This document shows, in pieces, positions 1 to 13,943 of a stretch of DNA of 49,351 bases; within the stretch, counting starts at the first letter, position 1; every line of letters begins with the position of its first letter. Source of the stretch: Patescibacteria group bacterium (GTDB lineage Bacteria; Patescibacteriota; Minisyncoccia; Phycocordibacterales; JBAYGS01); the NCBI GenBank assembly GCA_038078755.1, contig JBBTSQ010000025.1, positions 7,099 to 56,449 of the forward strand, in the 5' to 3' direction. The notes beneath the pieces were generated by a model. That model made no database searches. It was not told the origin of the DNA and was given only the letters and a program-made list of their open reading frames with translations. Position numbers and translations under genes: made by a program.

Positions 1-33
1 TCGCTTCGCGACCGCTCGACTTATCTCCTCTTA

Positions 34-375
34 TTATTGTGAGTTGTCTGTTGTTGGTTGTGGGTTTATTTCCTCCGTACTCGTCGCAGGAAGCACCTCT
101 AATCCACCATCAGTATCGAACTTCGTCTTCAAATCATCCACATTTTTACTAAAATTATCCGAGAATTGGGAGAATGATTTTTTGAGCGTATCAAACGGCC
201 CCGGCGCATCAACAGCGGGCAATGTATCCGTATTAGGAGTGGAAAAAGTCAGGGCGCGATTGGTCGAAAGCCATATACCAATAATCGCCACCACCAACAC
301 GATCGTCGTACCGATAGCAATCCGCTCGCGCACCACCGCTGGCTTATTTCGTACGTTTTGTAAAAAATCAGACAT
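34..375 (-). CDS. small membrane-anchored hypothetical protein (113 aa)
   Basis: ATG ORF with one TM helix (IAIGTTIVLVVAIIGIWL). The C-terminal tail PQPTTDNSQ is encoded by an A/C-only word tract (about 35-70). No family recognised. Confidence 0.45.
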   Translation of the reverse strand: MSDFLQNVRNKPAVVRERIAIGTTIVLVVAIIGIWLSTNRALTFSTPNTDTLPAVDAPGPFDTLKKSFSQFSDNFSKNVDDLKTKFDTDGGLEVLPATSTEEINPQPTTDNSQ

Positions 376-424
376 TTTTTGCTCTCCCCATTTAGAAATT
401 AGGAATTATAATTTAGAAATTGTG

Positions 425-1054
425 TTAGATTCTATCTAACACTACAACCTCGGCTTCTTTGCCTTCCAAATCTTTTTTCTTGAGCGTCAATTTATCTATC
501 GGCTTCACTCCCTCCTCGCCCGCTTCTTTCAAAAACGCTTTGAGCTCCTTACTTCCCGCCTCGCCATAGTGCATCGGAATAATCAGCTTTGGCTCGAGCG
601 CCACCGCAAGCTTGTACGCTTCTGCAGGAGAAAGCACCCCGTCGCCGCCGATCGGCACAAACAAAATATCAATATCATCGATCGCCCCTTTTGCATCAGA
701 TGAAAGCTCGGCACCGAGCGCACCCAAAAAACATAAGTTCATATTTTCAAGCGTCACACTATAGATAGTATTGATACGCTCTTCACCGCCTTCCAAAGAT
801 TTCGATGGCACGCCTTTGATAAACACACCTTTGACCTCATATTCTCCGGGACCGACAATCGCAAACGGCGTGCGATCGCCGTGAGTCACTTGCTCAATAC
901 CGTTGTAGTCGCGAGTATTGAGTGACACCAACGCAATGTCCGCCCCAAAACGCGTCTGGGGCAATTTTGATTCTTTGGAAATGGGATTAAAGGCTAGAAT
1001 CTTCTCGCCAAACTGCACCTTAAAAAATTCAGAGCCGTGGTAGGTGATGATCAT
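425..1054 (-). CDS. MBL-fold metal-dependent hydrolase (UPF0173-like)
   Basis: 209 aa. The N-terminus MIITYHGSEFFKVQFGEKILAFNP and the later LFVPIGG..PMHYG pattern are typical of the small beta-lactamase-fold hydrolase family. Confidence 0.65.
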   Translation of the reverse strand: MIITYHGSEFFKVQFGEKILAFNPISKESKLPQTRFGADIALVSLNTRDYNGIEQVTHGDRTPFAIVGPGEYEVKGVFIKGVPSKSLEGGEERINTIYSVTLENMNLCFLGALGAELSSDAKGAIDDIDILFVPIGGDGVLSPAEAYKLAVALEPKLIIPMHYGEAGSKELKAFLKEAGEEGVKPIDKLTLKKKDLEGKEAEVVVLDRI

Positions 1055-1120
1055 GATACTAAGAGTATAATAAAAAAACTGACAACATACAACTTACAAT
1101 CAGAAAAAAGGAGAAAGTAT

Positions 1121-1158
1121 GGAAAAAGAAAAAACGCGACCGTTGAGTTGGTCGCGTT
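1121..1158 (-). terminator. rho-independent terminator of the 1185-1823 ORF
   Basis: Stem AACGCGACC/GGTCGCGTT, followed on the minus strand by a T-run. Confidence 0.6.
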
Positions 1159-1184
1159 GCGAGACAGTGTCACATGTTTCGATT

Positions 1185-1823
1185 CTATTTCCAGAGAGCA
1201 CTGTCCGGAGCTCGGGAAAAGACACTGAGAGGTTCCTGACACAACCAAAAAGTGAGGATAAACGGACCTGCTCCATCAGCATTAGCCGTATGTGCTCGTA
1301 AGTGAGCCTTCAGCTCATCCACAGAAAGAGGTCTACACCCCAGCCGTTTTGTCGGCTGAGCGTTTGTCCCCAAACGAGTTTTGATGATTTTGTTTTTTGG
1401 TAGCTGATCAAACCGCTTGGAGATAAACCCTTCGATGTCGGTTACAACCGCCACATCCCGAATTGGACCCAACAGGGGCTTGTGCTGATTCAGCAGTCTG
1501 CGCGGGGGGTGATAAAAGTCTGCGTGTGGAATGATCTGATCAGTGACCAACACAGTGTAGCTAGCACCACCATCAACCGATGGCGACAGTAGCCACACAT
1601 GTTTCTGATCATCACTGGCCAAGAGCTTAAAAGAATTGACCGAATCACCTTCGAAACGAAGAATCGCTCGAAAGGTATCTGACGAAGCAGAAACAAACGA
1701 AGCCCACTCACCTTCACGGTAATAACGAATCTCTACCACGACGGAAAAGGAAACAGGAACATCCGCCCTTATCCCCTTGTCCATCCGCACCAACATCTGC
1801 GTGACATTGAACGTGTATTGCAT
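1185..1823 (-). CDS. orphan hypothetical protein (212 aa)
   Basis: Long ATG ORF with its own consensus promoter and terminator. No motif recognised. Confidence 0.5.
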   Translation of the reverse strand: MQYTFNVTQMLVRMDKGIRADVPVSFSVVVEIRYYREGEWASFVSASSDTFRAILRFEGDSVNSFKLLASDDQKHVWLLSPSVDGGASYTVLVTDQIIPHADFYHPPRRLLNQHKPLLGPIRDVAVVTDIEGFISKRFDQLPKNKIIKTRLGTNAQPTKRLGCRPLSVDELKAHLRAHTANADGAGPFILTFWLCQEPLSVFSRAPDSALWK

Positions 1824-1850
1824 AATTTTTTAAGAACCTTTCTATCTTCT

Positions 1851-1880
1851 ATTATACTATAGTATGTACCAATTTGTCAA
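1851..1880 (-). promoter_or_regulatory. sigma70-type promoter TTGACA-18-TATAAT for the 1185-1823 ORF
   Basis: The minus strand reads TTGACAaattggtacatactatagTATAAT, then GAAAGG about 12 nt before the ATG. Confidence 0.6.
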
Positions 1881-1895
1881 GTAAATTGGTGGTGT

Positions 1896-1930
1896 GTCAA
1901 AATAGCCTTATAAAACAAGGCTATTTTGAC
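1896..1930. repeat. 35-nt palindromic hairpin, family shared with 45008-45042
   Basis: GTCAAAATAGCCTT-ataaaac-AAGGCTATTTTGAC, a perfect 14-bp stem lying 15 nt upstream of the -35 box. Confidence 0.8.
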
Positions 1931-2025
1931 GAAAATTGGGCTATACAAAATTAATTCGATTAATTTTGTCGCCCGAATCCACCTAGGTGGATTTTAGGGA
2001 GATGAAATTGAAAGCAGGTTGGCGG

Positions 2026-2069
2026 GGCCAATAAGGCGAGTTTTGTCGACAAAACTCGCCTTATTGGCC
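2026..2069. repeat. perfect 44-nt palindrome
   Basis: GGCCAATAAGGCGAGTTTTGTC|GACAAAACTCGCCTTATTGGCC in a divergent intergenic region. Two more hairpins lie at about 1944-1969 and 1975-1994. Confidence 0.85.
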
Positions 2070-2119
2070 ATTTCTGTCGTCTGTGCTCTGACGTCTCTTG
2101 TCTTTCCCCCCCCCCTCGA

Positions 2120-2147
2120 TTGACACCTCCCCACTTTTGAGTATACT
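2120..2147 (+). promoter_or_regulatory. candidate promoter TTGACA-16-TATACT upstream of rpsA
   Basis: Sequence cgaTTGACAcctccccacttttgagTATACT. It implies a leader of about 250 nt before the rpsA ATG at 2401. Confidence 0.5.
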
Positions 2148-2400
2148 AAACGCTCATCCATTAATAGTCCGGAGTTTGGATAACGCCGTTGGTGACATGG
2201 GTCTTGTGTGCCGATTCTCGCCACCATCGACCAGTAATAACTTGGGGTTTCCAGTTGGATGCAATTCGCGAAGCAAGCGAGTATCACGACCAAAATGTAT
2301 ATGGAAATACATTGCGGGAGCGAACGGAGCTTGCGACAAAGAAGTGCGCCGACTGGAAGCTCCAGGACTCAAAACGGAAGCCAGATTCTGAAATAATAAT

Positions 2401-3627
2401 ATGGTATTAGGAATTTTTTCACGCAAGAAAAAGGAAGAAGTAAAAGCAGAGGCAGAAGTTGTTGCAGAATCTGCAGTTGCTGAATCATCAAAAAAGGAAT
2501 CTGCGCCAAAGGCAAAGGTTGCAAAAGCAAAAATTGAGGAGTCGGCCGAAGCGGTCATTCCCCAAAAACTGACCATGATGGATCAGCTGTTGTCTGACAG
2601 TGCAAATCCTCCGGCAATCGGCGACTTGGTTGAAGGTCCGGTCATTGCCATCGACAAATCTGGCGTCTATGTCGACCTTGCCCCAATCGGCACGGGCATT
2701 ATCTACGGTCGTGAATACATCAACGCCCGCGACATCATCAAAAAGATCAACATCGGTGATACCATCGCCGCAAAAGTAGTCGATACCGAACACAAAGAAG
2801 GCTACATCGAGTTGTCACTCAAAGAGGCTCGCCAAGCATTGATCTGGAGCGAAGCAGAAGATATTATCAAGAACAAAACCCTAGTTGAGCTTACCGTAAA
2901 AGAAGCCAACAAGGGTGGTTTGATCATGGAATGGCAAGGTATTGTCGGTTTCCTCCCTGCATCTCAACTCAAGGCAGACCACTACCCTCGCGTACAGGAT
3001 GGCGACAAAGATCGCATTCTTGAAGAATTGCGCAAATTGGTCGGCACACGCCTCACTGTCTCGATCATTGGTTCAGATCCGAAAGAGGGTAAATTGATCT
3101 TCTCTGAAAAGAGTCCGGTAGAAAAGGAGAAGGAGAAAATGACCGTCAAGTATAGTGTTGGCGATGAATTGGTCGGCGAAGTGACTGGTCTCGTAGACTT
3201 TGGTATCTTCGTGAAAGTCGAAGAAGGTCTGGAAGGCTTGGTACATATTTCTGAAATTGATTGGGCGCTCGTCGAGAATCCAAAAACACTCTACAAGATT
3301 GGCGACAAGGTGCGCGTGAAAGTGATTGAGGTCAAGGATGGTAAAGTATCGCTTTCAATCAAAGCGCTCAAGGAAAATCCATGGAAAGAAGCAGCCAAGA
3401 AATACAAGAAGGAACAAGCGGTAACTGGCGTGATTATCAAATTCAACAAACACGGCGCACTCGCTTCTATTGAAGAAGGTGTAGCGGGCCTCGTGCATGT
3501 GTCAGAGTTTGGTAGTGAAGACGTGCTTCGCAAAAAGCTCGAACTCGGCAAAACCTATCCGTTCAAGATTACGCTCTTTGATCCAAAAGAGCAGAAGATG
3601 ACGCTGTCGTTTGCCGGAACGAAGTAG
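2401..3627 (+). CDS. rpsA: 30S ribosomal protein S1 (four S1 domains)
   Basis: Repeated S1 OB-fold signatures (GDLVEGPVIAIDKSGVYVDL, GDELVGEVTGLVDFGIFVKV, AVTGVIIKFNKHGALASI). It has a K/E/A-rich N-terminal extension, so the start could be later (MMDQLL). Confidence 0.9.
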   Translation: MVLGIFSRKKKEEVKAEAEVVAESAVAESSKKESAPKAKVAKAKIEESAEAVIPQKLTMMDQLLSDSANPPAIGDLVEGPVIAIDKSGVYVDLAPIGTGIIYGREYINARDIIKKINIGDTIAAKVVDTEHKEGYIELSLKEARQALIWSEAEDIIKNKTLVELTVKEANKGGLIMEWQGIVGFLPASQLKADHYPRVQDGDKDRILEELRKLVGTRLTVSIIGSDPKEGKLIFSEKSPVEKEKEKMTVKYSVGDELVGEVTGLVDFGIFVKVEEGLEGLVHISEIDWALVENPKTLYKIGDKVRVKVIEVKDGKVSLSIKALKENPWKEAAKKYKKEQAVTGVIIKFNKHGALASIEEGVAGLVHVSEFGSEDVLRKKLELGKTYPFKITLFDPKEQKMTLSFAGTK

Positions 3628-3653
3628 TAAAATTAAGAAAAGGTGAAAAGAGA

Positions 3654-3697
3654 AAACCCCCTGCGACGGCCCATTTAGGCACGTCGCAGGGGGTTTT
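3654..3697. terminator. bidirectional terminator hairpin
   Basis: AAACCCCCTGCGAC...GTCGCAGGGGGTTTT between the convergent rpsA and 3703-3891 ORFs. Confidence 0.8.
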
Positions 3698-3702
3698 GCT
3701 TT

Positions 3703-3891
3703 TCAAAAGCACTGGCTGAAGAGATGCACAGCAAGCGCGCCCAAAAGCACGGTGGGTGGCAGTATGCCGAACACTACACAGATCACCTTGTGATCTCGCC
3801 GCTCACACTCACGCGTCTCGATCACCGCATACCACAGCCAGCCGAAGACACCGACAGTAAACACTACCCACCTCCACACATCGTAATTCAT
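3703..3891 (-). CDS. small two-TM hypothetical protein (62 aa)
   Basis: ATG ORF with two hydrophobic segments, flanked by terminators. Weak support. Confidence 0.35.
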   Translation of the reverse strand: MNYDVWRWVVFTVGVFGWLWYAVIETRECERRDHKVICVVFGILPPTVLLGALAVHLFSQCF

Positions 3892-3960
3892 ACAAAACCT
3901 TTCTCAAAGATGTTCTACTCTAATCAAAGCATACCCAACAAAATCACACAATCAAAAGAA

Positions 3961-3996
3961 AAAGCCCCGCCCTCGAGAGTACTCGGGGCGGGGCTT
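3961..3996 (-). terminator. GC-rich terminator hairpin after the 4004-4954 ORF
   Basis: AAAGCCCCGCCC...GGGGCGGGGCTT. Confidence 0.65.
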
Positions 3997-4003
3997 CGCG
4001 TGA

Positions 4004-4954
4004 TCATTTTTCGGCAATCTCCGACACTTCCCTCTTAAGCCAAAACTGCGTCAGCTCGGAAAGTTTTGCGATTCCTGCGAAAAGACTCAAACCCTGAATC
4101 GGCGAATCAACGTTGTGCGGGCTAAACTCAAATCCACATCGCCCGCCAGCTACCCGATCAAATGACCCGTCGATTCCAGTAGCGTTTCCCGGACAACTGA
4201 AATGAATCCCCCGGGCATCCAAACACTTGTGAAATGCGTACGGATCAGACGGCTTACCCATCATAGTGGCATAAGCGATCATCACCGCTTCCGACACTTC
4301 GCATATCAGCGCATCTTGTCGCGCCTGAGGCAAACTTTTGATGTAGTCCACCGCATCAGGACTGAGTACCCCAAAGACACCCGATCCTGATTGTCCCGGT
4401 TCGGCATTACACCGCACCGTGAGTGTCTGCCACTGAGTAGTCGGAAGATCAATTTCGGGAGGAAGATCCAGTATCCACAAGAGAATCACCAAACTCGATT
4501 GCAAAGCGTGAGCAGAGGTCCAATCACACTCTCTTTTCTTGCCAGAGCCATTACAGCTATAGCATTTGGCGCCAGACAATGGCTGTTTTTTCTGCCCATC
4601 GCAATACTGGCAAGCCTCGTGCGTATCAAACCAGATCACCGGCACCTTTGCCCAATATTCCACAAATGGGTCGCCTGATCTGCGGGGTTGTTTGACCAAT
4701 GCGCGATTGAAACCAAAGGTATCAGCAGAAAATGATCCGCAAAATTCGGAGTTGAGCAAGTCACCTCTCAGACCGTACATCTTCTCGAGATGCGCGACTA
4801 CCGGCGCAGTCGACGAGACATCTTCGAGCCCTGCCAGATACGCTTCGTGAATGCGAACGATGATCGTCGTATCCGAGCTTCGCCACCGCAGTTGATACCA
4901 ACACGCAATCGACTCATCCAAAAGCATCCGCGTCTTCCTCTGTGCAGAGTTCAT
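4004..4954 (-). CDS. orphan protein with DnaJ-type CxxCxGxG zinc-finger motifs (316 aa)
   Basis: Start re-chosen at the ATG giving MNSAQRK, because the longer ORF reads through a word tract. Contains CQYCDGQKK...CYSCNGSGKK. Locally GC-rich, with many shadow ORFs. Confidence 0.55.
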   Translation of the reverse strand: MNSAQRKTRMLLDESIACWYQLRWRSSDTTIIVRIHEAYLAGLEDVSSTAPVVAHLEKMYGLRGDLLNSEFCGSFSADTFGFNRALVKQPRRSGDPFVEYWAKVPVIWFDTHEACQYCDGQKKQPLSGAKCYSCNGSGKKRECDWTSAHALQSSLVILLWILDLPPEIDLPTTQWQTLTVRCNAEPGQSGSGVFGVLSPDAVDYIKSLPQARQDALICEVSEAVMIAYATMMGKPSDPYAFHKCLDARGIHFSCPGNATGIDGSFDRVAGGRCGFEFSPHNVDSPIQGLSLFAGIAKLSELTQFWLKREVSEIAEK

Positions 4955-5005
4955 TGTGTACCTTTCTTTGTAAAGTTCAAATTCTAGATACACTCTACTC
5001 CTTTT

Positions 5006-5135
5006 AAGAAAAACTAACAACAAACAACTCACCACCAACAATCAGAGTGAAAAGGATCGATTATTCACTTCAAATACTCGATTCTTTTCACTTTCAGATC
5101 CTGTTGTATGTTGTCAGTGGTAAGTTGTAAGTTTG
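5006..5135. repeat. inverted pair of A/C-only word tracts around a 15-bp hairpin
   Basis: Forward arm AAAAACTAACAACAAACAACTCACCACCAACAATCAGAG. Reverse arm TCAGATCCTGTTGTATGTTGTCAGTGGTAAGTTGTAAG. Central stem AGTGAAAAGGATCGA/TCGATTCTTTTCACT with one mismatch. Confidence 0.85.
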
Positions 5136-5137
5136 TC

Positions 5138-5755
5138 CTACAACCCATTAAACTCACTCATTGCTTTGTCGCGACCGTGCTCGACGAGGACAGAGAGGCC
5201 TTCAGCAACTTTCTTTGCAGACTTTTTAATCAGTTCTAATTCGGCTTTTTTGAATGGGTCGACAATAAAATCACCGATCAATTTTTCTCCGGACGGTTTT
5301 TTTAATTTGCCCGATGCAGTTGAAGGCGAAATCCCCATTCGTACCCGCACAAACGCTTCCGTGCCGATCGCTTTAATAATCGACTCGACGCCCTTGTGTC
5401 CACCAGAACTTTTATTAAAAGAAATTTTAAACTTACCAATTGGAATATCGAGGTCATCGTGAATCACCACCAGATTTTCTGCCACACCCCCTTTGAAAAC
5501 TTTAGACTTCGCCACTTTGACCAGAGACTTCACCGAAAGCCCCGACTTATTCATAAAAGTCTCGGGTTCAACAAGTGTTACTTTGTTTTTTGCCACACCC
5601 CCTTTCGAGACCGACGCATTTATTTTTTTATCCAACACAAAGTCATCTGCTGAAATAGATTTGGCAAATACACCCAGCACAATCCTGCCCGCGTTATGAC
5701 GAGTGAGCGCGTATTCCTCTCCGGGATTTCCGAGACCAACGATGATGTAGTGCAT
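5138..5755 (-). CDS. pth: peptidyl-tRNA hydrolase
   Basis: MHYIIVGLGNPGEEYALTRHNAG N-terminal signature. ORF-track residues 1-32 (5756-5851) are read-through of a stop-free word tract. Confidence 0.9.
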   Translation of the reverse strand: MHYIIVGLGNPGEEYALTRHNAGRIVLGVFAKSISADDFVLDKKINASVSKGGVAKNKVTLVEPETFMNKSGLSVKSLVKVAKSKVFKGGVAENLVVIHDDLDIPIGKFKISFNKSSGGHKGVESIIKAIGTEAFVRVRMGISPSTASGKLKKPSGEKLIGDFIVDPFKKAELELIKKSAKKVAEGLSVLVEHGRDKAMSEFNGL

Positions 5756-5760
5756 AGGGG

Positions 5761-5858
5761 GAGTATATAACAAACAACTAACAACACACAACAGACCAGA
5801 AACCGACAACCCACAACAAATAACTGACAACTCACAACATACAACAAACAATCAGAAG
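5761..5858. repeat. long A/C-only word tract
   Basis: CAAACAACTAACAACACACAACAGACCAGAAACCGACAACCCACAACAAATAACTGACAACTCACAACATACAACAAACAATCAGAAG. Confidence 0.85.
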
Positions 5859-5871
5859 AGAAAATTCCCCG

Positions 5872-6195
5872 AAATTAGGTTAAAGGCTCAACCCTGAATA
5901 GCCTGTCGGGTTGAGCCTTTAACCTAATTTTAACTAAAAACCACTAAAAATACTGCATCAAAAATCGTGTGATAATTCTCTAAACGGCCTTGCAGTAGAG
6001 CCATGAAATGCTCGAACGGCTCACCGAAGCACCATATGTATCGAACGTATGGGTAAAGAGTAATAGGGTGTTACTGGTTCTTTTATGTAGTATGCTTGTA
6101 AGTAATAAGCATGGTGCTCGGTGAGCCGTTTAGCACTTCTACGTTCCAGTTGAGCCGTTTTTTGGCGAAAAAGCCAAAAAACGGCTCAACCGAGC
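5872..6195. repeat. GAGCC/GGCTC modular hairpin repeat, copy A
   Basis: 23-bp perfect stem AAATTAGGTTAAAGGCTCAACCC/GGGTTGAGCCTTTAACCTAATTT (5872-5930), then a body shared with copies B and C (TAGAGCCATGAAATGC..GAACGGCTCAC). It ends in an 18-bp stem GTTGAGCCGTTTTTTGGC/GCCAAAAAACGGCTCAAC. Confidence 0.8.
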
Positions 6196-6295
6196 CAATA
6201 AATCCCCCATTGTGCAAAATATCGATCGGTAGTACAATAGCGCCACTCTCTGCTGTATTTCTGACAGGCACGATTGGTTTCCTAGCCCATATTGT

Positions 6296-6901
6296 ATGTC
6301 TCTCGACCCCATCTCACCCACCCCAACCGAATCGCTCACCCATCCCACTCGCAAAAGTGAGTGGCAAGAACTCCTCCGTTTTGCGCTCACCGTACTTATT
6401 GTTGTCGTTCCTATCAGACTCTATGTTGTCCAGCCATTTATCGTCTCTGGCGAATCAATGCACCCAACTTTTAGTGATGGCGAATACCTCATCGTTGATG
6501 AAGTAAGTTACCGTTTCCAAAAACCAACCCGAGGCGAGACTATTATTTTCCGCCCACCACTTAATACCAAAAAATTCTACATCAAACGTATCGTCGGACT
6601 GCCGAAAGAGACTATCTCAATCTCCGACACAAAAGTTATCATCAAAAATGCCGACAATCCGGACGGATTCATTCTCGACGAATCATATGTCAAAGTCCCG
6701 TGGTCAAGCACACTCACCAAAACGCTCGGCGACAATGAATACTTTGTCATGGGCGACAATCGATCCGCCAGCTCGGATTCACGAGTGTGGGGAGCATTGC
6801 CAGAGGACAACATTATCGGCCGACCGCTCGTCCGTCTGTATCCATTGAAAACCATCGAGGCATTTCCGGGCACAAGCATGCAAAAGACGTCTACCAATTA
6901 A
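6296..6901 (+). CDS. lepB: signal peptidase I
   Basis: N-terminal TM, SGESMHPTF serine box and GDNRSASSDSR box. Confidence 0.9.
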   Translation: MSLDPISPTPTESLTHPTRKSEWQELLRFALTVLIVVVPIRLYVVQPFIVSGESMHPTFSDGEYLIVDEVSYRFQKPTRGETIIFRPPLNTKKFYIKRIVGLPKETISISDTKVIIKNADNPDGFILDESYVKVPWSSTLTKTLGDNEYFVMGDNRSASSDSRVWGALPEDNIIGRPLVRLYPLKTIEAFPGTSMQKTSTN

Positions 6902-6911
6902 CTCGCGCCGT

Positions 6912-8144
6912 ATGAAAAAACAGAAAAAAACAATCACGCCAAAAGAATCAAACACTGCCTACAGCGACATCGACACGGCAGCCGAAGTGGCGGTCTACTA
7001 CGGCTTCACTCCGCAAAAAACGCCCACCATCAAAAAAGATGACATGGCGCAAGCAAAACACATTGAAAGCGCGGACGAAAAAAAGGCACTTCCTCTCGGC
7101 TGGGACACCTTAAGTCTCGAGGGACAATCAGCGCTCATCCGCGAATACGTCGATAACAATTGGCATAATTTACCGCAACCGCTCACCCACTATCACAAGG
7201 GGCCGTTTGCCATCGACGGCAAACCGGCAAAAAAAGAAAGTCGAGAGATGGAATGCTATCTTGAAATCATCGGCACGCACAAAAGCATCGCCGAAGCGAT
7301 TATTATCGAGACCGCCATCGCCATTTTGAAAGAAGAAGGTTATGACGATCTCCATCTTGAGATTAATAGTATCGGCGATCGAGAATCATTTTCTCGTTTT
7401 ACCAAAGAACTGACTGCCTACTATCGAAAGCATATCAATGACCTCCCCGCCGCGTGCAGACAAGCGATGAAATCGAGTGTCTTCAGTCTCTTGTCGTGCA
7501 GTGAACATGAGACGTGTAAAAAATTGGCGGTAGATGCACCGCAATCAATCAGCTTTCTCTCTGAAGCCAGCCGGCATCATTTTCAAGAAATTTTGGAGTA
7601 TTTAGAGACGCTCGATATTCCCTACACTATCCAAAATTTACTAGTCGGCAATCCGAGTTTTTCATCGGGGCCAGTATTTGAAATCAGAAATGATGGTTGT
7701 GCGCGAGGTAAAGGCGTCGCCCCGCTTGCGGTCGGCTGTCGATACGACGGTCTGGCCAAAAAGCTCGGCGCCAAAAAAGAAATTCTGGGCGCGTGCGCCG
7801 TGCTCCATTTCAAAAAGCCGACCGGTGAAAAAGCCAATCATAAAGTCAAAAAACCGGAAGTGTATTTCATCCAGCTTGGGTTTGAAGCGAAACTAAAAAG
7901 TCTCAAAGTGATCGAGGTACTCCGCCAAGCCAAGATCCCAGTGCATCAAGCGCTCTGTCGCGATCGCATGGCCACCCAAATCGCCATCGCCGAGAAATCA
8001 AAAGTGCCATTCCTCTTGATTATGGGACTGAAAGAAGCGATGGAAAACGCGGTCATCGTGCGCGACATGACCGACCGATCACAAAACACAATCAAAATTG
8101 AAGATGTGCCGGCGTATCTGAAGAAGTTGAAAGCGCAGAAGTAG
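6912..8144 (+). CDS. histidyl-tRNA synthetase family protein, divergent (HisRS/HisZ-like)
   Basis: HisRS-like order INSIGD...PVFE...GCRYDGL, plus a C-terminal anticodon-binding-like domain (VYFIQLG..FLLIMG). Several class II catalytic motifs look substituted. Confidence 0.65.
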   Translation: MKKQKKTITPKESNTAYSDIDTAAEVAVYYGFTPQKTPTIKKDDMAQAKHIESADEKKALPLGWDTLSLEGQSALIREYVDNNWHNLPQPLTHYHKGPFAIDGKPAKKESREMECYLEIIGTHKSIAEAIIIETAIAILKEEGYDDLHLEINSIGDRESFSRFTKELTAYYRKHINDLPAACRQAMKSSVFSLLSCSEHETCKKLAVDAPQSISFLSEASRHHFQEILEYLETLDIPYTIQNLLVGNPSFSSGPVFEIRNDGCARGKGVAPLAVGCRYDGLAKKLGAKKEILGACAVLHFKKPTGEKANHKVKKPEVYFIQLGFEAKLKSLKVIEVLRQAKIPVHQALCRDRMATQIAIAEKSKVPFLLIMGLKEAMENAVIVRDMTDRSQNTIKIEDVPAYLKKLKAQK

Positions 8145-8175
8145 GAAGTATAAAGTAAAAAGTATGAAGCACGAG

Positions 8176-8214
8176 AAAAGCCCCCGAAATTGCTCCGCAA
8201 TTTCGGGGGCTTTT
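8176..8214 (+). terminator. rho-independent terminator
   Basis: AAAAGCCCCCGAAATTGC-tcc-GCAATTTCGGGGGCTTTT. Confidence 0.8.
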
Positions 8215-8328
8215 CCCTTCAACGGCTCACTGCTTTAAAAGAATGCCCCAGCACCTTTGGCACAAAGGCGTTGGGGCATTCTTTTTTCTGAGCCTCTGTA
8301 GAGCCATAAAATCATCTTTTTAAATTAC

Positions 8329-8357
8329 TTGACTTTTTGTGTGACTTGGTATATACT
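8329..8357 (+). promoter_or_regulatory. promoter TTGACT-17-TATACT
   Basis: TTGACTttttgtgtgacttggtaTATACT upstream of the 8436 ORF. Confidence 0.55.
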
Positions 8358-8435
8358 ACACACCAGAAAGGTACCGAAGTGCGAATCATCGCCGTTGCCA
8401 AAAGCGCCTGCTTTTGGACTTCAGACTCTTGTTCT

Positions 8436-8789
8436 ATGAAAAACCTACACATCTTTTTCTGTTTTCTCTCGGTTCTACTGATAGGGATCAATCTCCTAAT
8501 GCTGATAGATACAGATGGCCGAATCTGGTTGGTGTTGAGCTTTATTCTAACTCTCGGATTCACTTTTGAACGCGATGAACCTGTCACAACGACACTTCTG
8601 AGCTTCTTCTGGATGATGACACTGGGTGCTGTTACAGCACGTAATTTTCAACACCCACTTGAAGTGAGCACTGGTACTTTCGTATTTGTATGTTTTGGAT
8701 TTGTGTTTATGTGCTTTTCGTTCATTCATGGTTTTCGCTCCCTGATTAATTCAACACCGAGGATCGGTGTGCAGGAATCAGCCAATTGA
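8436..8789 (+). CDS. small polytopic membrane protein (117 aa)
   Basis: Start re-chosen at the ATG giving MKNLHIFF. Three to four hydrophobic helices. Followed by a terminator. Confidence 0.45.
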   Translation: MKNLHIFFCFLSVLLIGINLLMLIDTDGRIWLVLSFILTLGFTFERDEPVTTTLLSFFWMMTLGAVTARNFQHPLEVSTGTFVFVCFGFVFMCFSFIHGFRSLINSTPRIGVQESAN

Positions 8790-8806
8790 CCACCCCTAGA
8801 CTCCCT

Positions 8807-8838
8807 CGCCGTCCGGCTTCCGGACGGCGTTTTCTTTT
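8807..8838 (+). terminator. rho-independent terminator
   Basis: CGCCGTCCG-gcttc-CGGACGGCG followed by TTTTCTTTT. Confidence 0.75.
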
Positions 8839-8904
8839 CCCCTCTTCCAACCTCCCTCCCTAAGCACGCAGGGCGGTTTGATTCCTCTTATCAACAGCGA
8901 GCGA

Positions 8905-9046
8905 GAATCACTTCTGGTGTATGTCGCGGAGTTTCGCCAGCATGGTCTGTCAAGAGATGTGTCTGCACATAATCTTGACAGTGACGAAACGAGCGTAGGA
9001 AAAGCCGGTGCTGGCCGGCTTTATCCGCGTACGCCAGAAGTGATTC
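8905..9046 (+). ncRNA. candidate structured RNA or MITE-like element (three-way junction, about 142 nt)
   Basis: 19-nt terminal arms GAATCACTTCTGGTGTATG / CGTACGCCAGAAGTGATTC whose two differences are G-U compatible only on the plus strand. Inner stems are CTGTCAAGA/TCTTGACAG, GTTTCG/CGAAAC and AAAGCCGG/CCGGCTTT. Confidence 0.4.
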
Positions 9047-9056
9047 GAGGGAGCAT

Positions 9057-9085
9057 TTGCATCAAACCACTCTGCGTGCTATACT
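9057..9085 (+). promoter_or_regulatory. promoter TTGCAT-17-TATACT for rpsU
   Basis: TTGCATcaaaccactctgcgtgcTATACT, 10 nt before the rpsU ATG. Confidence 0.6.
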
Positions 9086-9095
9086 CTCCCCCACT

Positions 9096-9344
9096 ATGGC
9101 TATCAACGTAGAAATCACCAAAAACGCATCAGAAACAGGACTGTCAGTCCTGCGCCGTTTTACCAAGCGCGTCCAAGGCTCGGGTATCATCCCGCGCGTA
9201 AGATCACTTCGCTACAATCAGCGCGTGCTCTCCCACTACAAAAATAAAATGAAAACGCTTGAAGGCATCAAGAACCGAGCAGAAAAAGCGGAGTTGATGA
9301 AGCAGGGCAAGCTCGTAGAAGAACCAAGAAAGCGCGGTCGTTAA
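9096..9344 (+). CDS. rpsU: 30S ribosomal protein S21
   Basis: 82-aa basic protein, MAINVEITKN..LRRFTKRV..; start set at the ATG at 9096. Confidence 0.85.
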   Translation: MAINVEITKNASETGLSVLRRFTKRVQGSGIIPRVRSLRYNQRVLSHYKNKMKTLEGIKNRAEKAELMKQGKLVEEPRKRGR

Positions 9345-9463
9345 AATAAGCAAAACAACATCATCTACTTCGTTGCTTCGCTCGTTTGCTCCTGCAACGT
9401 ATTTGTATACGTTTTAGTCGCAAAGCTCGCTCGCGCCTCGTATCTAAAATTGTTTTGCTTATT
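9345..9463. repeat. long intergenic hairpin with 14-bp perfect outer stem
   Basis: AATAAGCAAAACAA (9345-9358) pairs with TTGTTTTGCTTATT (9450-9463). Inner stem AACGTAT/ATACGTT. Confidence 0.75.
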
Positions 9464-9473
9464 TACACACCAC

Positions 9474-9869
9474 ATGACGAGTCCCGACAATTTTCACATA
9501 CACATCAAAACAAAAAGCAACCCGTCACCTGACCGGTTGCTTTTTGCTTCTATCAAAGAAGCGATCTTAGGGAAAGACTATGACCTTGCGGTCATTCTCA
9601 CAACGCCAAAAGAAACCCAAAGGCTCAATCGCGATTACCGACAGAAAGATTCCCCCACCGACATCTTGAGTTTTCCAATTAATTCATTCGAGGGTGAAAT
9701 CTACCTCGACATTGAAACCGCCAAAGTCGAGGCGCCAAAATTTGACCGTCCGATTGAAAACTTTTTGCCATTCTTATTTATCCACGGATGCCTCCATTTG
9801 AAAGGAATGGCACATGGTAGTACAATGGAGAAGATCGAGGCCAAATTTCGAAAAGAATTTGGCATCTAA
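9474..9869 (+). CDS. ybeY: rRNA maturation endoribonuclease YbeY
   Basis: HGCLHLKGMAHG zinc-binding H-x3-H-x5-H motif; 131 aa. Confidence 0.85.
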   Translation: MTSPDNFHIHIKTKSNPSPDRLLFASIKEAILGKDYDLAVILTTPKETQRLNRDYRQKDSPTDILSFPINSFEGEIYLDIETAKVEAPKFDRPIENFLPFLFIHGCLHLKGMAHGSTMEKIEAKFRKEFGI

Positions 9870-9874
9870 ATGAT

Positions 9875-9970
9875 CAATTAACAATTTCCAATTTTCAATC
9901 AATTTTCAATCACATAATTTAAATATTTCTTAGTTGATTGAAAATTTGATAATTGATAATTTGAAATTAC
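9875..9970. repeat. imperfect AT-rich inverted word tract (TTCCAATTTTCAAT class)
   Basis: Left arm CAATTAACAATTTCCAATTTTCAATCAATTTTCAATCAC. Right arm GTTGATTGAAAATTTGATAATTGATAATTTGAAATTAC. Confidence 0.75.
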
Positions 9971-9982
9971 TACCCCGTAGTC

Positions 9983-11161
9983 ATGGCACGCAACATCGCA
10001 GTCGGCATTGATATCGGTACCTACCAGATCAAGGTGGTCGTGGCAGAGCTCGGTAAAGAAAAGACCACTCCGCATATTATCGGAATGGGTTTTGCCGAGT
10101 CCAAAGGCTTGCGCCATGGCTATATTGTAAACGGCAGTGATGCGATAAAAAGTATCAAGCAGGCCGTCTCCCAAGCCGAGAAAATCGCTAAAGTGCCGAT
10201 CAAACGTGCTCACATTTCGGTCGGTGGTATTGGACTATCATCGATTACCTCAAACGGTGTTACCACCGTGACTCGCGCCGATCTCGAAATCACCGATCTC
10301 GATATCAAAAAAGCTATCGAAGTGAGTAAAAATGAAATTCCGCAATCTTTTTCACTCAATCGCCGAATCCTCCATACTATCCCGCTTGAATACAAAATTG
10401 ATGGCCAAAAAGTGTTTGGCAAACTGCAAGGAATGAAGGGGGCGAAGCTCGAAGTCAAAACACTATTCATCACTTCGCTTGAGCAACATTTGGAAGAGCT
10501 AATTTCCGTAGTGGAAGAAGCGGGAGTGGAAATCGAAGACGCTATTGCCGCGCCGATTGCATCAAGTCTCGTCACCCTTTCTAAACAACAAAAAACTGCT
10601 GGGTGTATATTGGCAAACATCGGCTCCGAGACGGTATCTATCGCTGTGTTTGAAAACAATATTCCAGCATCACTCGAAGTCTTCCCATTTGGATCGACCG
10701 ATATCACCAACGACATCGCCCTTGGCCTCAAAGTATCACTCGAAGAAGCCGAACGTCTAAAAGTGGGTGGTACCATCGACTCCAACCAGTCTCGCAAAAA
10801 ACTCGACGAGATTATCGTGGCGCGCTTGTCAGACATTTTCGAACTGATCGAAGCGCATCTGAAAAAAATCGGGCGCAACGGTCTTTTGCCTGCCGGCATC
10901 ATCATCACCGGTGGCGGATCAGGTATTGCCACCATCGAAGACTTTGCCAAAGCCTCGCTCAAACTCCCATCACGCATCGGCAATATCGCTTTTGGTCCAA
11001 GCTTGGGCGATCGCTTTAAAGACGCGACATGGTCGGTGGCATATGGTCTCTGCATCTTGGGACTTTCTGGAGAATCTGACGGGATGAAACATGGCGCTGG
11101 ATTACAAGGCAAAGAGGTTATTACAAATGTTGGCAGATGGTTTAAACAGTTTTTACCCTGA
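9983..11161 (+). CDS. ftsA: cell division protein FtsA
   Basis: Actin-like ATPase: VGIDIGTYQIKVVVAE phosphate-1 motif and IIITGGGSGI. Confidence 0.9.
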   Translation: MARNIAVGIDIGTYQIKVVVAELGKEKTTPHIIGMGFAESKGLRHGYIVNGSDAIKSIKQAVSQAEKIAKVPIKRAHISVGGIGLSSITSNGVTTVTRADLEITDLDIKKAIEVSKNEIPQSFSLNRRILHTIPLEYKIDGQKVFGKLQGMKGAKLEVKTLFITSLEQHLEELISVVEEAGVEIEDAIAAPIASSLVTLSKQQKTAGCILANIGSETVSIAVFENNIPASLEVFPFGSTDITNDIALGLKVSLEEAERLKVGGTIDSNQSRKKLDEIIVARLSDIFELIEAHLKKIGRNGLLPAGIIITGGGSGIATIEDFAKASLKLPSRIGNIAFGPSLGDRFKDATWSVAYGLCILGLSGESDGMKHGAGLQGKEVITNVGRWFKQFLP

Positions 11162-11204
11162 GTACAGGGAGAATTAAGAATCAAGAATTATGATTCATGA
11201 ATAA

Positions 11205-11235
11205 CTGCCCCGTCTAGCTTCGCTAGACGGGGCAG
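11205..11235. terminator. terminator hairpin after ftsA
   Basis: CTGCCCCGTCTAGC-ttc-GCTAGACGGGGCAG. Confidence 0.75.
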
Positions 11236-11254
11236 TTTGAATATTTTGCTAAAG

Positions 11255-11282
11255 AAAAATCCGCTCGAGCGCAAGGCTTGAG
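11255..11282 (-). terminator. terminator-like hairpin, direct repeat of 11899-11928
   Basis: AAAAATCCGCTCGAGCGCAAGGCTTGAG. Two further hairpins stack at about 11290-11330 and 11346-11380. Confidence 0.55.
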
Positions 11283-11390
11283 TATAAAGTATAGAGAATC
11301 CCCCGAAATCACAAAGCGATTTCGGGGGATTCTCTGTGTGTAATAAAAAAATCCATCGAATGATACACTCGATGGATTCTACGAAAACTA

Positions 11391-11837
11391 TCAATTGATT
11401 CGAGCTGGCCACATGTGAGCTGGTTTGTCTAAAAGCTCCGCAGGGATGTTCGGTAAAAGGAAATCATCATCAACCTCGGTAATCATACAGCGAGCAAGCC
11501 CCACTCCAACAGCATCACCAGAGTATTGACCAATCCACGTGTTACCGTGCTTCACAGTAAAAGAATACTTGATGATATCCTTACGTCTGTCGTAATGTTT
11601 CGTAAACGATACCTCGCGATCGCTCACAGAGATATCTTTGAGCACTGACTCACCACAGGTATCCAACATATATCCCCTGAGGTTGTTCCTCGATTGTCGT
11701 TGGTCGGAAAAAATTATTCCCGCAAACATGGTTTGAAACAAACCTTCATTGATGGTAACCACGGCACCCTCGATAGGCACACAAGCCAGTCCAAGATACT
11801 GCCGGTTTTGAAAGAACACACCTTGAATCAAGAACAT
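11391..11837 (-). CDS. orphan hypothetical protein (148 aa) inside the ftsA-ftsZ spacer
   Basis: ATG ORF antisense to the division genes, bracketed by near-identical 25-nt repeats. No motif recognised. Confidence 0.45.
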   Translation of the reverse strand: MFLIQGVFFQNRQYLGLACVPIEGAVVTINEGLFQTMFAGIIFSDQRQSRNNLRGYMLDTCGESVLKDISVSDREVSFTKHYDRRKDIIKYSFTVKHGNTWIGQYSGDAVGVGLARCMITEVDDDFLLPNIPAELLDKPAHMWPARIN

Positions 11838-11898
11838 AAATAAACCTTTCTTTTTGTATCCTTTCTAACAATACTCTCACCAAGACAAAAGTCAATAA

Positions 11899-11928
11899 AA
11901 AAATCCGCTCGAGCACAAGGCTGAGCGG
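11899..11928 (-). terminator. rho-independent terminator, direct repeat of 11255-11282
   Basis: The minus strand reads CCGCTCAGCCTTGTGCTCGAGCGGATTTTTTT. Confidence 0.6.
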
Positions 11929-11963
11929 AAAATGGAAACCTGTGGTTAGGAGGGTGGTGACCG

Positions 11964-12179
11964 TCATCCCCACTGACCATTATTGACAGCATAACTGTGA
12001 TTCACAGTACAATGGGAATTACTATCGTTCCTAAACCAGCACCCGCCGTGAATACAAACGACCGATGGCAACTCGTGTATAGATTTGTATTCCACACACT
12101 CTGGCGTGATTTCTAGGCCACGCGGGCTCCAACGTATAGTTACTACGTCTTCATAGCCTCCCACCTGATTTTGCGACAA
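11964..12179 (-). CDS. small Cys/His-containing hypothetical ORF (71 aa, TTG start)
   Basis: Only an ORF with a non-ATG start. Weak support. Confidence 0.25.
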   Translation of the reverse strand: MSQNQVGGYEDVVTIRWSPRGLEITPECVEYKSIHELPSVVCIHGGCWFRNDSNSHCTVNHSYAVNNGQWG

Positions 12180-12422
12180 CCTCCACAGGCATCCGCTACC
12201 AGTCTACAGATATCAGATAAAAAGTAAAGCCAAAGCATGAAACAAAACTAAGCAAAATCAAGGCTTTCCTTTTTAAACGCTGGTGGTATCATTGGAGAAA
12301 CAAGTTCTGCGTTATTGGGAAATAGCGTAGGCGGTCTCACGAAAAATCAGAAATGTTTTCGTGGTAGTTCTGTATCTGCGGAATATACTAGCCTCGACGA
12401 GAGTAATTTTTTCATAATTATC

Positions 12423-13616: not shown

Positions 13617-13659
13617 AAGCTAGATTCAAGAATTAAGATTCATGATTCATGAATAAGAC

Positions 13660-13890
13660 CTAAACCAGTGAGCCTTTAAACTAATTTTCACCAAAAAACG
13701 TTAAAAATCGCCTCGTCAAAAACCGTGTCAACATTTCCCAAACGGCGTTGCCATTAAGGCACAGAATGCCTGAACGGCTCACTGGTTTTGGCCTCAAAAG
13801 GAGTGAGCCGTTCAGTGCTTTTAAGCCTACATAGAGCCACGCCACAGGAAAAAGTGTAAAATATGTTGCAACAGAGCCATTTTTGACATC
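13660..13890. repeat. GAGCC/GGCTC modular hairpin repeat, copy B
   Basis: Carries only the right arm of the terminal hairpin (GAGCCTTTAAACTAATTTT), then the shared body with a 13-bp stem CTGAACGGCTCAC/GTGAGCCGTTCAG, ending ACAGAGCCATTTTTGAC. Confidence 0.75.
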
Positions 13891-13900
13891 TTCAATAGTC

Positions 13901-13933: not shown

Positions 13934-13943
13934 GCGTAACGAT

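Follow-up and report, generated by a model that had tools for sequence, protein, structure and literature searches.

Degenerate heptanucleotide repeat arrays of fixed polarity in the spacers of a Parcubacterium contig

What are the tracts of restricted-alphabet words that fill many spacers of this stretch of DNA, and how are they arranged with respect to its genes and hairpins? The stretch (hereafter the window; 49,351 nt, the whole of the DNA analysed) comes from a Patescibacteria group bacterium, and its best named TsaD and Pth homologues belong to Candidatus Parcubacteria, Paceibacterota, Taylorbacteria and Patescibacteria. A sequence-only reading had reported five vocabularies of such words, with the unit at 5006-5135 as a leading example, and all five were found where it had located them. 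It missed, however, that the words are 7-nt tandem units. Relatives of the window add about 100 kb of sequence, and all tract counts given here are confined to the window and these relatives.

The intergenic tracts are short degenerate tandem arrays of 7-nt units, in which five positions are conserved and two adjacent positions are free. When spacer sequence was compared with itself, 50 intergenic comparison windows reached at least 17 matches in 21 at lag 7 and seven did so at lag 21, while none was found at any other lag from 1 to 20; at the same threshold, sequence covered by open reading frames (ORFs) gave 10 such windows at lag 7 and six at lag 14. About 30 of the 50 rows returned by Tandem Repeats Finder have a period of 7, 14 or 21, which indicates that higher-order periods of 14 and 21 nt exist. 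The family-a pattern ACAACNNACAACNNACAACNNACAAYCAGA, with up to three mismatches allowed, matched nine times as against no match in 100 shuffles. We count about 31 intergenic tracts, which total 1,009 nt of about 7.5 kb of spacer DNA (about 14%) and fall into at least six families, plus three tracts within genes; the arrays range from 3 to 14 units. The unit cores are ACAACNN in family a, WGAWTYA in family b, AAGTANN in family c, TTAGNNN in family e, CCAAT/TCAATNN, and also AAATC followed by AA. As calculated from 52 phased units, family a carries 1.3-2.0 bits at unit positions 1-5 and 0.15-0.36 bits at positions 6-7. Comparison of successive units in 33 tracts gave 212 mismatches, of which 138 fell in the two best adjacent phases, where the null expectation was 106 ± 3.6 and none of 5,000 permutations reached 138; this test is independent of the unit phase chosen. 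Only one array in the window is a perfect threefold heptamer (ACTTCAT x3, within 22026-22142). Family-a arrays start near AAAACTR, and the end motif that had been ascribed to them is present in 7 of 13 arrays, as ACAA[TC]CAGA[AG] (ACAAYCAGAR), mostly followed by a purine-rich stretch, and absent from the rest. The family-b arrays 3' of ftsA, ftsZ and trxB all terminate in TGAATAA.

The tracts were placed on a gene map made from the gene calls and Pfam hits of contigs with exactly matching proteins (Hainich groundwater metagenomes, 0.1- and 0.2-µm filter fractions; metagenome-assembled genome (MAG) GCA_964364845.1, whose contig is L007). Mapped genes include those for S1, pth, a signal peptidase, a HisRS-like gene, ybeY, ftsA, ftsZ, trxB and tsaD, and further a class-I aminoacyl-tRNA synthetase (aaRS), prsW, hsp20, divIC, lepA, two release factor (RF) genes, murJ, pyrG and ftsEX; the window also holds nine tRNAs and an RNase P RNA at 36556-37012. 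Among the relatives, L001-L010 are near-identical strain contigs and L257 is a strain with a Pth 95% identical in protein sequence; Pth identity to the window is 90% in L255 and 77-80% in L254 and L256, and L258 is a Taylorbacteria contig. The features are as follows.

5009-5046, plus strand: family-a array, left arm of the 5006-5135 unit (AAAACTA ACAACAA ACAACTC ACCACCA ACAATCA GAG)
5047-5094: central hairpin of the same unit, AGTGAAAAGGATCGA ... TCGATTCTTTTCACT, of moderate GC
5095-5137, minus strand: family-a array, right arm of the same unit, beginning 4 nt past the pth stop and pairing with the left arm
5761-5858, plus strand: two tandem family-a arrays, the first ending ACCAGAA and the second ACAATCAGAAG; on the pth sense strand, a 14-unit GTTGT tract adjoining TGTTATATA-N8-ATG
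32-66, minus strand: family-a array (ACAAC on the minus strand), 3' of an 87-aa ORF
1074-1104, plus strand: family-a array ending ACAATCAGAA; on the sense strand, a GTTGT tract between the terminator-like hairpin 1133-1158 and the start of a metallo-beta-lactamase-fold (MBL-fold) gene
14606-14645, plus strand: family-a array, left arm in the divergent hyp194/trxB spacer, with no central hairpin
14669-14706, minus strand: family-a array (TCTGATTGT...GTTGT on the plus strand), immediately 5' of TGTTATAAT of trxB
18786-18831, plus strand: family-a array in frame in TsaD loop 1, coding for KKLTTNNSQQTTRE
19073-19140, plus strand: CCAATNN / AACNAAT heptamers in frame in TsaD loop 2
24686-24713, plus strand: family-a array between tRNA-Phe and the hairpin 24714-24750
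29579-29622, minus strand: family-a array 26 nt past the stop of an RF gene, followed by a 59-nt palindrome (29513-29571)
36413-36520, plus strand: unit of an ACAAC arm (36413-36446), a GC hairpin (36465-36493) and a TCTGATTGT/GTTGT arm (36494-36515), in the divergent spacer 5' of RNase P RNA
36822-36890, plus strand: TCAATNN heptamers and an inverted TTGA arm, within RNase P RNA
11170-11204, plus strand: family b (WGAWTYA), 8 nt past the ftsA stop and 5' of a terminator-like hairpin
13622-13656, plus strand: family b, 5 nt past the ftsZ stop
14734-14768, minus strand: reverse form of family b, overlapping the trxB start and 82% complementary to 15696-15729 (34 nt)
15696-15730, plus strand: family b, 5 nt past the trxB stop
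23430-23501, plus strand: family b, two arrays, the first beginning 2 nt past the hsp20 stop
43965-44014, plus strand: family b, the reverse form lying on the ftsE sense strand and adjoining TGTTAGAAT-N6-ATG
8138-8169, plus strand: family c (AAGTANN) that overlaps the HisRS-like gene's stop, with the terminator-like hairpin 8174-8215 after it
22026-22142, plus strand: family-c unit of an AAGTATA arm, the terminator-like hairpin 22066-22107 and an ACTTCAT x3 arm
26811-26840, plus strand: family c; on the divIC sense strand, an ACTTNNN tract adjoining TGTTATACT-N6-ATG
15750-15781, minus strand: reverse form of family c (ACTTNNN on the plus strand), 5' of the next gene
9874-9968, plus strand: family-d unit between ybeY and ftsA, with a CAATNNN arm (9874-9912), an AT loop and a TTGANNN arm (9937-9968)
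392-421, plus strand: family e (TTAGNNN), occupying a 49-nt operon spacer
43242-43271, plus strand: family e, occupying the 36-nt ftsE-ftsX spacer
41854-42309, plus strand: AAATCAA-type arm (41854-41903) and its inverted partner (42259-42309), around a 23S_rRNA_IVP gene

Two details of the sequence-only reading are corrected by this list: its forward family-a form at 35-70 is actually the reverse (GTTGT) form, and the opening TCTGATTGT that it gave to the reverse forms does not hold for 5095-5135, which begins otherwise. Its placement of family b directly past the stops of ftsA, ftsZ, trxB and hsp20 (here 2-8 nt) and before ftsE was borne out. A further heptamer-like family, ACAGACA / TGTCTNN, was noticed as a 40-nt inverted match between 2073-2112 and 49131-49170, and also in L255 (2440-2490) and L011 (18720-18770).

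The tracts are strictly oriented. Each was tabulated against the nearest gene end, and all 17 of the 17 strongly A/T-skewed tracts with an unambiguous neighbour gene keep one polarity rule, the two arms of one pair being entered as separate cases. The sense strand shows the A-rich form (ACAAC, AAGTA) at the 3' end of a gene and the T-rich form (e.g. GTTGT, ACTT) at the 5' end. Relative to the dyad, the A-rich arm always lies 5' and the T-rich arm always 3' of the hairpin or centre, whichever strand is read, so that the order along transcription is stop codon, A-rich tract, hairpin, T-rich tract and promoter or start; in divergent spacers the plus strand likewise passes from A-rich to T-rich. 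Non-tract spacer DNA showed no such polarity (skew -0.05 upstream and -0.06 downstream of genes). Replication-strand bias was rejected as the source, as both polarities are found on one replichore with a monotonic cumulative GC skew; the polarity thus tracks genes and hairpins and not the replication strand. Tracts occupy the stretch from stop codon to hairpin and that from hairpin to promoter or start; they also lie in short spacers within operons, in a TsaD surface loop and in a peripheral portion of RNase P RNA, that is, wherever extra sequence is tolerated. Their polarity is that of the A-tract and the U-tract in a bidirectional intrinsic terminator.

The T-rich tracts often adjoin an extended -10-like motif, TGnTAnnnT, 6-8 nt 5' of the ATG (pth, divIC, ftsE). 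It may be noted that this motif, often followed by NNCCCT and with no Shine-Dalgarno sequence, stands at the same distance from the ATG at divIC (26794), lepA (29284), ftsE (43954), pth (5755), ribD_C (38115), GIY-YIG (46877) and the aaRS (19839). This suggests that many of the mRNAs may be leaderless; GGAG-type sites occur at other genes, e.g. hyp87 and hyp112. The pth promoters of L254 and L256 read TTGACG/TTGACA, about 17 nt, TACAAT/TAGAAT, N8 and ATG, with no tract there. We also observed that trxB is flanked by inverted family-b tracts, a layout that recurs with diverged sequence in L254 and L256. Pairing between the 5' and 3' ends of the trxB mRNA is conceivable, family b being nearly self-complementary anyway (TCATGA core).

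Three units with two arms around a hairpin fold much more stably than shuffles: -47 kcal/mol for 5003-5137 and -46 kcal/mol for 36413-36520 (each z -6.0) and -41.7 kcal/mol for 22026-22142 (z -9.9). The two-armed unit 9872-9970 reached -19.3 kcal/mol (z -3.2). In these models the paired arms are predicted to pair up and extend the central hairpin by 15-30 bp. The architecture of forward tract, strong GC hairpin and reverse tract that had been proposed as typical stood at 36420-36520, which has a strong GC hairpin, and failed at 5006-5135, where the centre (5047-5094) is not GC-rich, and at 14607-14705, where there is no hairpin. A scan for intrinsic-terminator patterns over positions 1-20000 matched at 1133-1158, 11203-11237 and part of 8174-8215, with 29 matches in all, no excess over shuffles (23.6 ± 5.0), and the hairpin at 22066-22107 belongs to the same family as that at 8174-8215 and has the same fold. 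The heptamer arms have terminator-like polarity, yet they are not U-runs.

The hairpins themselves fall into families. One, AAAAGCCCC[CA]GAAATTGC ... GCAATTTCGGGGGCTTTT (GCCCC[CA]GAAATTGC), occurs at several gene ends (8174-8215, 11293-11335 and 22066-22107; 3180-3215 in L255); another is a 59-nt palindrome at 5872-5930 and 29513-29571, with a similar one at 40088-40133. In L255 the AAAAGCCCC/GCAATTTCGGGGGCTTTT hairpin stands in for the central hairpin of the pth unit, which implies that hairpins behave like swappable modules. Larger pieces recur as well. The composite 5823-5951, made of tract, spacer and palindromic hairpin, is repeated in inverted orientation at 29492-29619 with 83-95% identity, and the 46-nt tract 5002-5047 is 89% identical to the TsaD tract 18786-18831. 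For these two pairs the earlier argument for copying over convergent drift, drawn from near-identical 24-mers, is sustained; much of the similarity between sites is due to the shared 5-nt core in register, and not all of it to copying of whole 24-mers. By a rough calculation from dinucleotide frequencies, the sharing of three consecutive variable dinucleotides between two of about 12 arrays is about what chance would give.

A dispersed repeat of about 190 nt is present in three copies with 75-84% identity (5860-6060, plus; 13660-13870, plus; 29360-29580, minus); it contains GAGCCTTTAAACTAATTTT, CAAAAACCGTGT, TAGAGCCATGAAATGC and the inverted pair CTGAACGGCTCAC/GTGAGCCGTTCAG, and is preceded by a family-a tract in two copies and by a family-b tract in one. 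It could be a small RNA gene or a miniature inverted-repeat transposable element (MITE). The motifs (C)TAYAGAGCCAT and AACGGCTCAC, related to this repeat, were seen at about 8226, 8300, 24330, 29330, 36340 and 40150. Between ftsX and pyrG, a 23S_rRNA_IVP-family gene (41915-42286, minus strand) is flanked by 50-nt inverted heptamer tracts that are 78% complementary, and looks as if it sat at the centre of a tract-centre-tract unit. In the public MAG contig L007, a scaffold gap of poly-G and N10 at 2698-2810 (about window position 36474) falls exactly at the GC hairpin of the 36413-36520 unit; the assembly join failed at this hairpin, and an apparent 192-nt insertion at the 36474 unit of L007 was discarded as scaffold junk (poly-G and N10) and no real variant.

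The comparison of strains gave no sign of length polymorphism: no tract indel and no difference in tract length was found among the strain contigs L001-L010, among the more than 10 near-identical contigs compared (99.9-100% identity) or in L257. The pth gene itself (5138-5755) behaves differently from its surroundings. Against L257 it has 90.3% nucleotide identity, with 22% of third codon positions differing and flanks at 98-100%, and the divergent patches lie at gene positions of about 37-160 and 315-620, which marks pth as a recombination mosaic between strains; in L002, 10 nt replace window positions 5396-5444 within pth, an in-frame difference of 39 nt. The contrast of spacers at 98-99% with pth at 90% in L257 had been considered as a sign of purifying selection on the tracts. 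It does not support this, since pth is itself a recombination patch within near-identical flanks and allows no inference on tract selection.

At greater distance, related Parcubacteria share vocabularies and exchange families at orthologous sites. L255 retains a diverged ACAAC arm past the pth stop and has a TCTGGTTGT arm, with another central hairpin between them, and 5' of its pth a TGTCT-type tract is found where the window has the GTTGT array. In L254 and L256 pth has compact spacers and plain putative terminators; family b is kept 3' of ftsZ and S1, and its reverse form 5' of trxB and the MBL-fold gene. Between aaRS and prsW the window has family c, L011 the 3' arm alone, and L013 both family b and family a. 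The family-e TTAGAAATTAG tract at 43242-43271 is nearly identical in the Taylorbacteria contig L258 (17605-17640). Lag 7 was the sole repeat lag detected among lags 4-12 at a strict threshold in L011, L256, L258 and L259; the shorter loci L013, L254 and L255 gave no repeat lag at this threshold. Arrays of ACAACNN x4 are common in Cyanobacteria, Bacteroidota, Acidobacteriota and Planctomycetota, where they are mostly homogeneous and some end just 5' of an ATG; the array end ACAAYCAGAR was found in none of 141 arrays from other phyla. Among metagenome contigs chosen by this end motif, on which tblastn with the window's proteins found few orthologues, 12 with a GC of 0.38-0.51 have the A/C arm first and a GTTGT arm at most 150 nt on; 13 contigs of the set have the reverse arm order, 12 of them at 53-70% GC and one at 47%. 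It was also noticed that the regions 3703-5137 and 13617-14752 of the window contain extra small genes (hyp307, hyp62, hyp194, hyp148) and kilobase-long spacers where the spacers of L254, L256 and L259, whose genes stand in the same order, measure 50-110 nt; heptamer units border these insertions.

Tracts also lie within genes. The RNase P RNA (bacterial class A, 36556-37012, plus strand) scores 92.2 bits (E about 1e-28) against an Rfam gathering score of 100. The score is below gathering because of an insertion of about 66 nt in the P15-P17 region, built of TCAATNN units and an inverted TTGA arm, and default thresholds therefore miss the gene; no protein gene is called across 36349-37628. Folded alone, the insertion is no more stable than shuffles (z -0.3). 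In TsaD (Pfam E 4.6e-79, matching in three stretches) there are two in-frame tracts. In loop 1 the window has ACAACNN, L011 and the Taylorbacteria contig L258 have AATT[TC]C[TC], L259 has AAGTNNA and L013 has nothing, and loop 2 is wholly absent from several homologues. In its sense orientation family a is without any stop codon and ORFs read through it; the gene calls for pth and its neighbour are over-extended in this way, running through ACAAC tracts.

We favour, at a probability of roughly 45%, the explanation that the tracts would be the flanking arms of terminator or insulator hairpins, made by unit duplication and module copying, and that they would represent degenerate heptanucleotide repeats in a Parcubacterium. 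On this explanation arrays would arise and be remodelled by duplications of 7, 14 or 21 nt beside hairpins, tract modules with or without their hairpin would be copied between loci, and selection would retain only the polarity that is compatible with a terminator. The arms would chiefly reinforce or insulate transcript ends, and many single arms may be near-neutral. Several observations weigh against it. Local inverted pairing involves only about 12 of 31 tracts, and about half consist of one arm, so that the inverted pairs of the sequence-only reading are one of several arrangements; the divergent hyp194/trxB unit (14600-14710) has no central hairpin and folds weakly (z -1.3 and -2.5). Stem extension is, therefore, not the whole story. 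The terminators already hold A/T tracts of their own inside the arms. The 14-unit array and the 5006-5135 unit are both present in L257 too, with four substitutions and no indel in 313 nt of tract-bearing spacer while the flanks have diverged by about 1%; this lack of any 7-nt length change, together with the single perfect x3 array, implies that ongoing slippage is slow. Neutral slippage followed by decay would moreover put mismatches at all seven positions. The duplication account leaves three things unexplained: a 5-nt core that is conserved, array ends specific to a family, and family b being kept at the same gene ends in relatives whose Pth is about 78% identical. All three would suit a protein that reads in a 7-nt register, or a mode of synthesis that leaves two wobble positions.

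Such a reader is central to the alternative that survives best, which we nevertheless consider unlikely. The arrays would be binding platforms on which one or more single-strand nucleic-acid-binding proteins with a footprint of about 7 nt read the 5-nt cores on RNA or DNA; gene boundaries would be marked in this way: the A-rich side would serve to protect the 3' untranslated region or to terminate, and the T-rich side would act upstream of the promoter or at the 5' end. The 5+2 unit is what a register-specific reader would be expected to leave, and the strict 17/17 orientation, the conserved ends of family-a arrays, the retention of family b 3' of ftsZ and 5' of trxB in the window, L254 and L256 despite drift, and vocabularies common across the class, with the TTAGAAATTAG tract near-identical in Taylorbacteria, are all in its favour. 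The same argument for a reader has been made for TAACTGA repeats, for which oligonucleotide/oligosaccharide-binding (OB)-fold proteins of cold-shock or S1 type were proposed (MacGregor 2015, PMC4679880). On the other hand, the six or more unrelated cores (ACAAC, AAGTA, CAAT, TTAG, WGAWT, AAATC) would need several readers or very loose ones, orthologous sites swap families freely, and 5+2 tracts stand in frame in a protein loop, where selection for binding is unlikely. No cold-shock-domain protein, and no other candidate beyond the ribosomal-type S1, was present among the window proteins that were scanned or had precomputed Pfam hits. Two 62-aa ORFs adjoining units were considered as trans-acting candidates and set aside, as they are mutually unrelated and have no Pfam match. 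A broader proposal, which we hold to be rather improbable, is a cis 'grammar' common to the class within Parcubacteria and written or read by a dedicated 7-nt-register factor, which might be a single-strand reader or a templated or stuttering, telomerase-like synthesis with two wobble positions. If this were true, it would be the polar arrays, A-rich and T-rich, that define the ends of transcripts and the zones upstream of promoters in genomes otherwise poor in regulatory DNA.

The mobile-element, back-up-stop, -35-supply and contingency-locus readings are weaker. In our judgement it is quite improbable that the units represent small non-autonomous modules, mobile or recombining (MITE-like, or boundaries of cassettes), with inverted arms built of heptamers, which would have spread through transposition or site-specific recombination, sometimes carrying genes. 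It would account for composites that recur at distant loci in either orientation, for the inverted tracts that bracket the 23S_rRNA_IVP gene (41854-42309) and trxB (14734-15730), for hyp307, hyp62 and hyp194 adjoining units where relatives have compact spacers, and for a central hairpin that can be exchanged while the arms stay. Yet the units have no fixed length, reading through the sequences brought no target-site duplications to notice (no systematic search for them was made), and no transposase or REP-associated tyrosine transposase (RAYT) is among the called genes of the window with Pfam hits on record. Arrays also vary by unit rather than as whole copies, many are single arms, and period 7 is found in coding loops too and, in many variants, across phyla.

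It is very improbable that local coding or promoter needs explain the tracts, whether as back-up stops in three frames (7 being coprime with 3) or as a supply of -35-like TTG hexamers from GTTGTNN/TTGANNN units. Families b and e do have stops in every frame and begin 2-8 nt past stop codons, but family a in sense orientation has none. At trxB, pth, the MBL-fold gene, hyp307 and the prsW of L013 the distance between a GTTGT unit and a -10-like hexamer is indeed 16-17 nt, but the correct spacing in 5 of about 11 cases is no better than the 3 of 7 given by 7-nt phasing alone, and tract-free relatives have an ordinary TTGACG/TTGACA at the same promoter. Contingency loci, i.e. hypermutable repeats that switch genes by gain or loss of units, are scarcely credible here: tandem repeats do stand near promoters and starts, and short repeats act as such switches in Haemophilus and Moraxella (PMC4679880), but these arrays are degenerate apart from a single perfect x3, do not differ in length among more than 10 strain-level contigs or in L257, and adjoin housekeeping genes (ftsA, ftsZ, trxB, pth, RNase P). 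There is practically no probability, in our view, that the tracts are low-complexity drift by chance in spacers rich in AT. Nothing but the low complexity itself speaks for this, and it is ruled out by the unique period 7, the nine matches against none in shuffles, the 17/17 orientation and the mismatch phase; as the sequence-only reading had held, k-mers are shared beyond chance and position and orientation are strongly regular.

Two observations concern other parts of the window. An 81-nt direct repeat (73%) at 1850-1930 and 44962-45042 lies 5' of two unrelated minus-strand genes and holds TATTATAC, a TTGACA-like box and the hairpin GTCAAAATA(G/C)CCTT(A/G)TAAAACAAGG(C/G)TATTTTGAC; it may be a shared promoter or operator module. 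On the minus strand, tRNA-Phe and tRNA-Gly are each followed directly on the 3' side by a structured stretch of about 200 nt (24389-24608 and 26150-26307, respectively), and both stretches are conserved in L011 (14570-14830 and 17500-17780). Each ends in a second copy of the 3' portion of the tRNA, e.g. GGTGCTGGGACCCAGGT at 24403-24419, and resembles an att-site remnant or an unusual tRNA-linked RNA.

Patescibacteria are known for small, streamlined genomes, and heptamer repeats are now found among them, where about 14% of spacer DNA is hard to call junk. As far as we know, how bacterial heptanucleotide repeats arise and what they do has been an open question since the STRR sequences (short, tandemly repeated, repetitive) were described in 1990. 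The present arrays add new testable constraints, namely the 5+2 unit, the strict polarity relative to hairpins and gene ends, and the rapid swapping of families at fixed sites with no change of length at strain level. Proteins and rRNAs of the candidate phyla radiation (CPR) are known for insertions, and the in-frame TsaD tracts and the RNase P RNA insertion illustrate how heptamer repeats create insertions in protein and RNA; such repeats also make ORF callers over-extend genes. In the literature searched, which was not covered exhaustively and so gives no proof, we found no report of heptamer repeats in CPR/Patescibacteria.

How do the tracts compare with known systems? The sequence-only reading had matched them to none of the repeat classes that it named, and in this it was right for repetitive extragenic palindromes (REP), bacterial interspersed mosaic elements (BIME), enterobacterial repetitive intergenic consensus (ERIC) sequences and CRISPR, and probably for MITE, all of which share with the tracts that they are intergenic, repeated and often hairpin-forming. 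REP/BIME were rejected since the arms are direct heptamer arrays with no conserved 20-40-nt palindrome, the hairpin families being REP-like but separate from the tracts, and CRISPR since there are no 23-50-nt repeats split by unique spacers. What approaches a MITE is one composite module in 2-3 copies within the window. Rfam matched only the tRNAs and the RNase P RNA, with unrelated weak hits (E 0.0009-0.049) far below gathering; a sub-threshold MIR8562 hit (31.8 bits against 211) overlaps the tract unit at 22016-22145. Rickettsia palindromic elements, reportedly described by Ogata et al. in 2000, are said to be 100-150-nt palindromes of fixed sequence that stand in frame in protein genes. What they share with the tracts is repeat sequence accommodated by RNA genes and, in frame, by the loops of conserved proteins; they differ in being palindromes of fixed sequence where we find arrays of 7-nt units. 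Bidirectional intrinsic terminators have the same A-rich 5' and T-rich 3' polarity and location between genes, and arms that can pair to extend the stem are predicted here too; here, however, phased heptamer arms of 20-100 nt lie outside the hairpin's own A/T runs, and the same arrangement is found in divergent promoter spacers, where no terminator is needed.

It is the heptanucleotide tandem repeats, which had not been considered, that fit. The window and the relatives show a head-to-tail 7-nt unit and many dispersed, mostly non-coding arrays of several families, as is typical of this class; near-identical units within an array, also typical, are replaced here by units with two adjacent near-free positions and only one perfect x3. 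The STRR sequences are said to have been described by Mazel et al. in 1990 and Vioque in 1997 as heptanucleotide tandem repeats of heterocystous cyanobacteria, with the reported consensus units CCCCAGT (STRR1), TTGGTCA (STRR2) and CAACAGT (STRR3). Like them, the tracts are tandem 7-nt units of several families per genome, mostly intergenic and tolerated in the RNase P RNA gene, although the STRR insertion in that RNA is reported at P12 and ours is at P15-17; ACAACNN arrays as such are also common in cyanobacteria. Unlike STRR, whose units are near-perfect and whose hosts are cyanobacteria, the arrays of this small-genome Patescibacterium are degenerate (5+2), have 3-14 units, a lineage-specific end motif and strict polarity, and the window holds no tandem copies of the STRR1-3 consensus units. 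The TAACTGA heptamers are direct repeats in spacers of Beggiatoaceae, cyanobacteria and Bacteroidetes, with orientation bias relative to genes, occasional copies in ORFs, 7-nt strain differences in Cyanothece and unknown function, for which S1, Csp and CsrA were put forward as candidate readers (MacGregor 2015, PMC4679880). The tracts resemble these as gene-oriented heptamer direct repeats of spacers that also enter some ORFs. The TAACTGA system, however, has one exact heptamer, mostly forward and just 5' of start codons, where our tracts belong to many families, have free positions, flank hairpins on either side and show the A-rich form 3' of genes; TAACTGA itself occurs in the window as four single copies and never in tandem. 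Long simple sequence repeats (SSRs), as far as they are summarized at second hand, have units of 5-11 nt with heptanucleotides the most abundant, and polymerase slippage over a 7-nt contact was proposed as their origin (Mrazek et al. 2007, via PMC4679880). Judged by that summary, they share the preference for a 7-nt unit and differ in being perfect or nearly so and longer than chance would give, where our units have two degenerate positions and our arrays showed no change of length between the near-identical strain contigs compared. Thus the tracts are a degenerate, multi-family and polar form of the bacterial heptanucleotide repeats represented by STRR, TAACTGA and long SSRs, here in a Parcubacterium.

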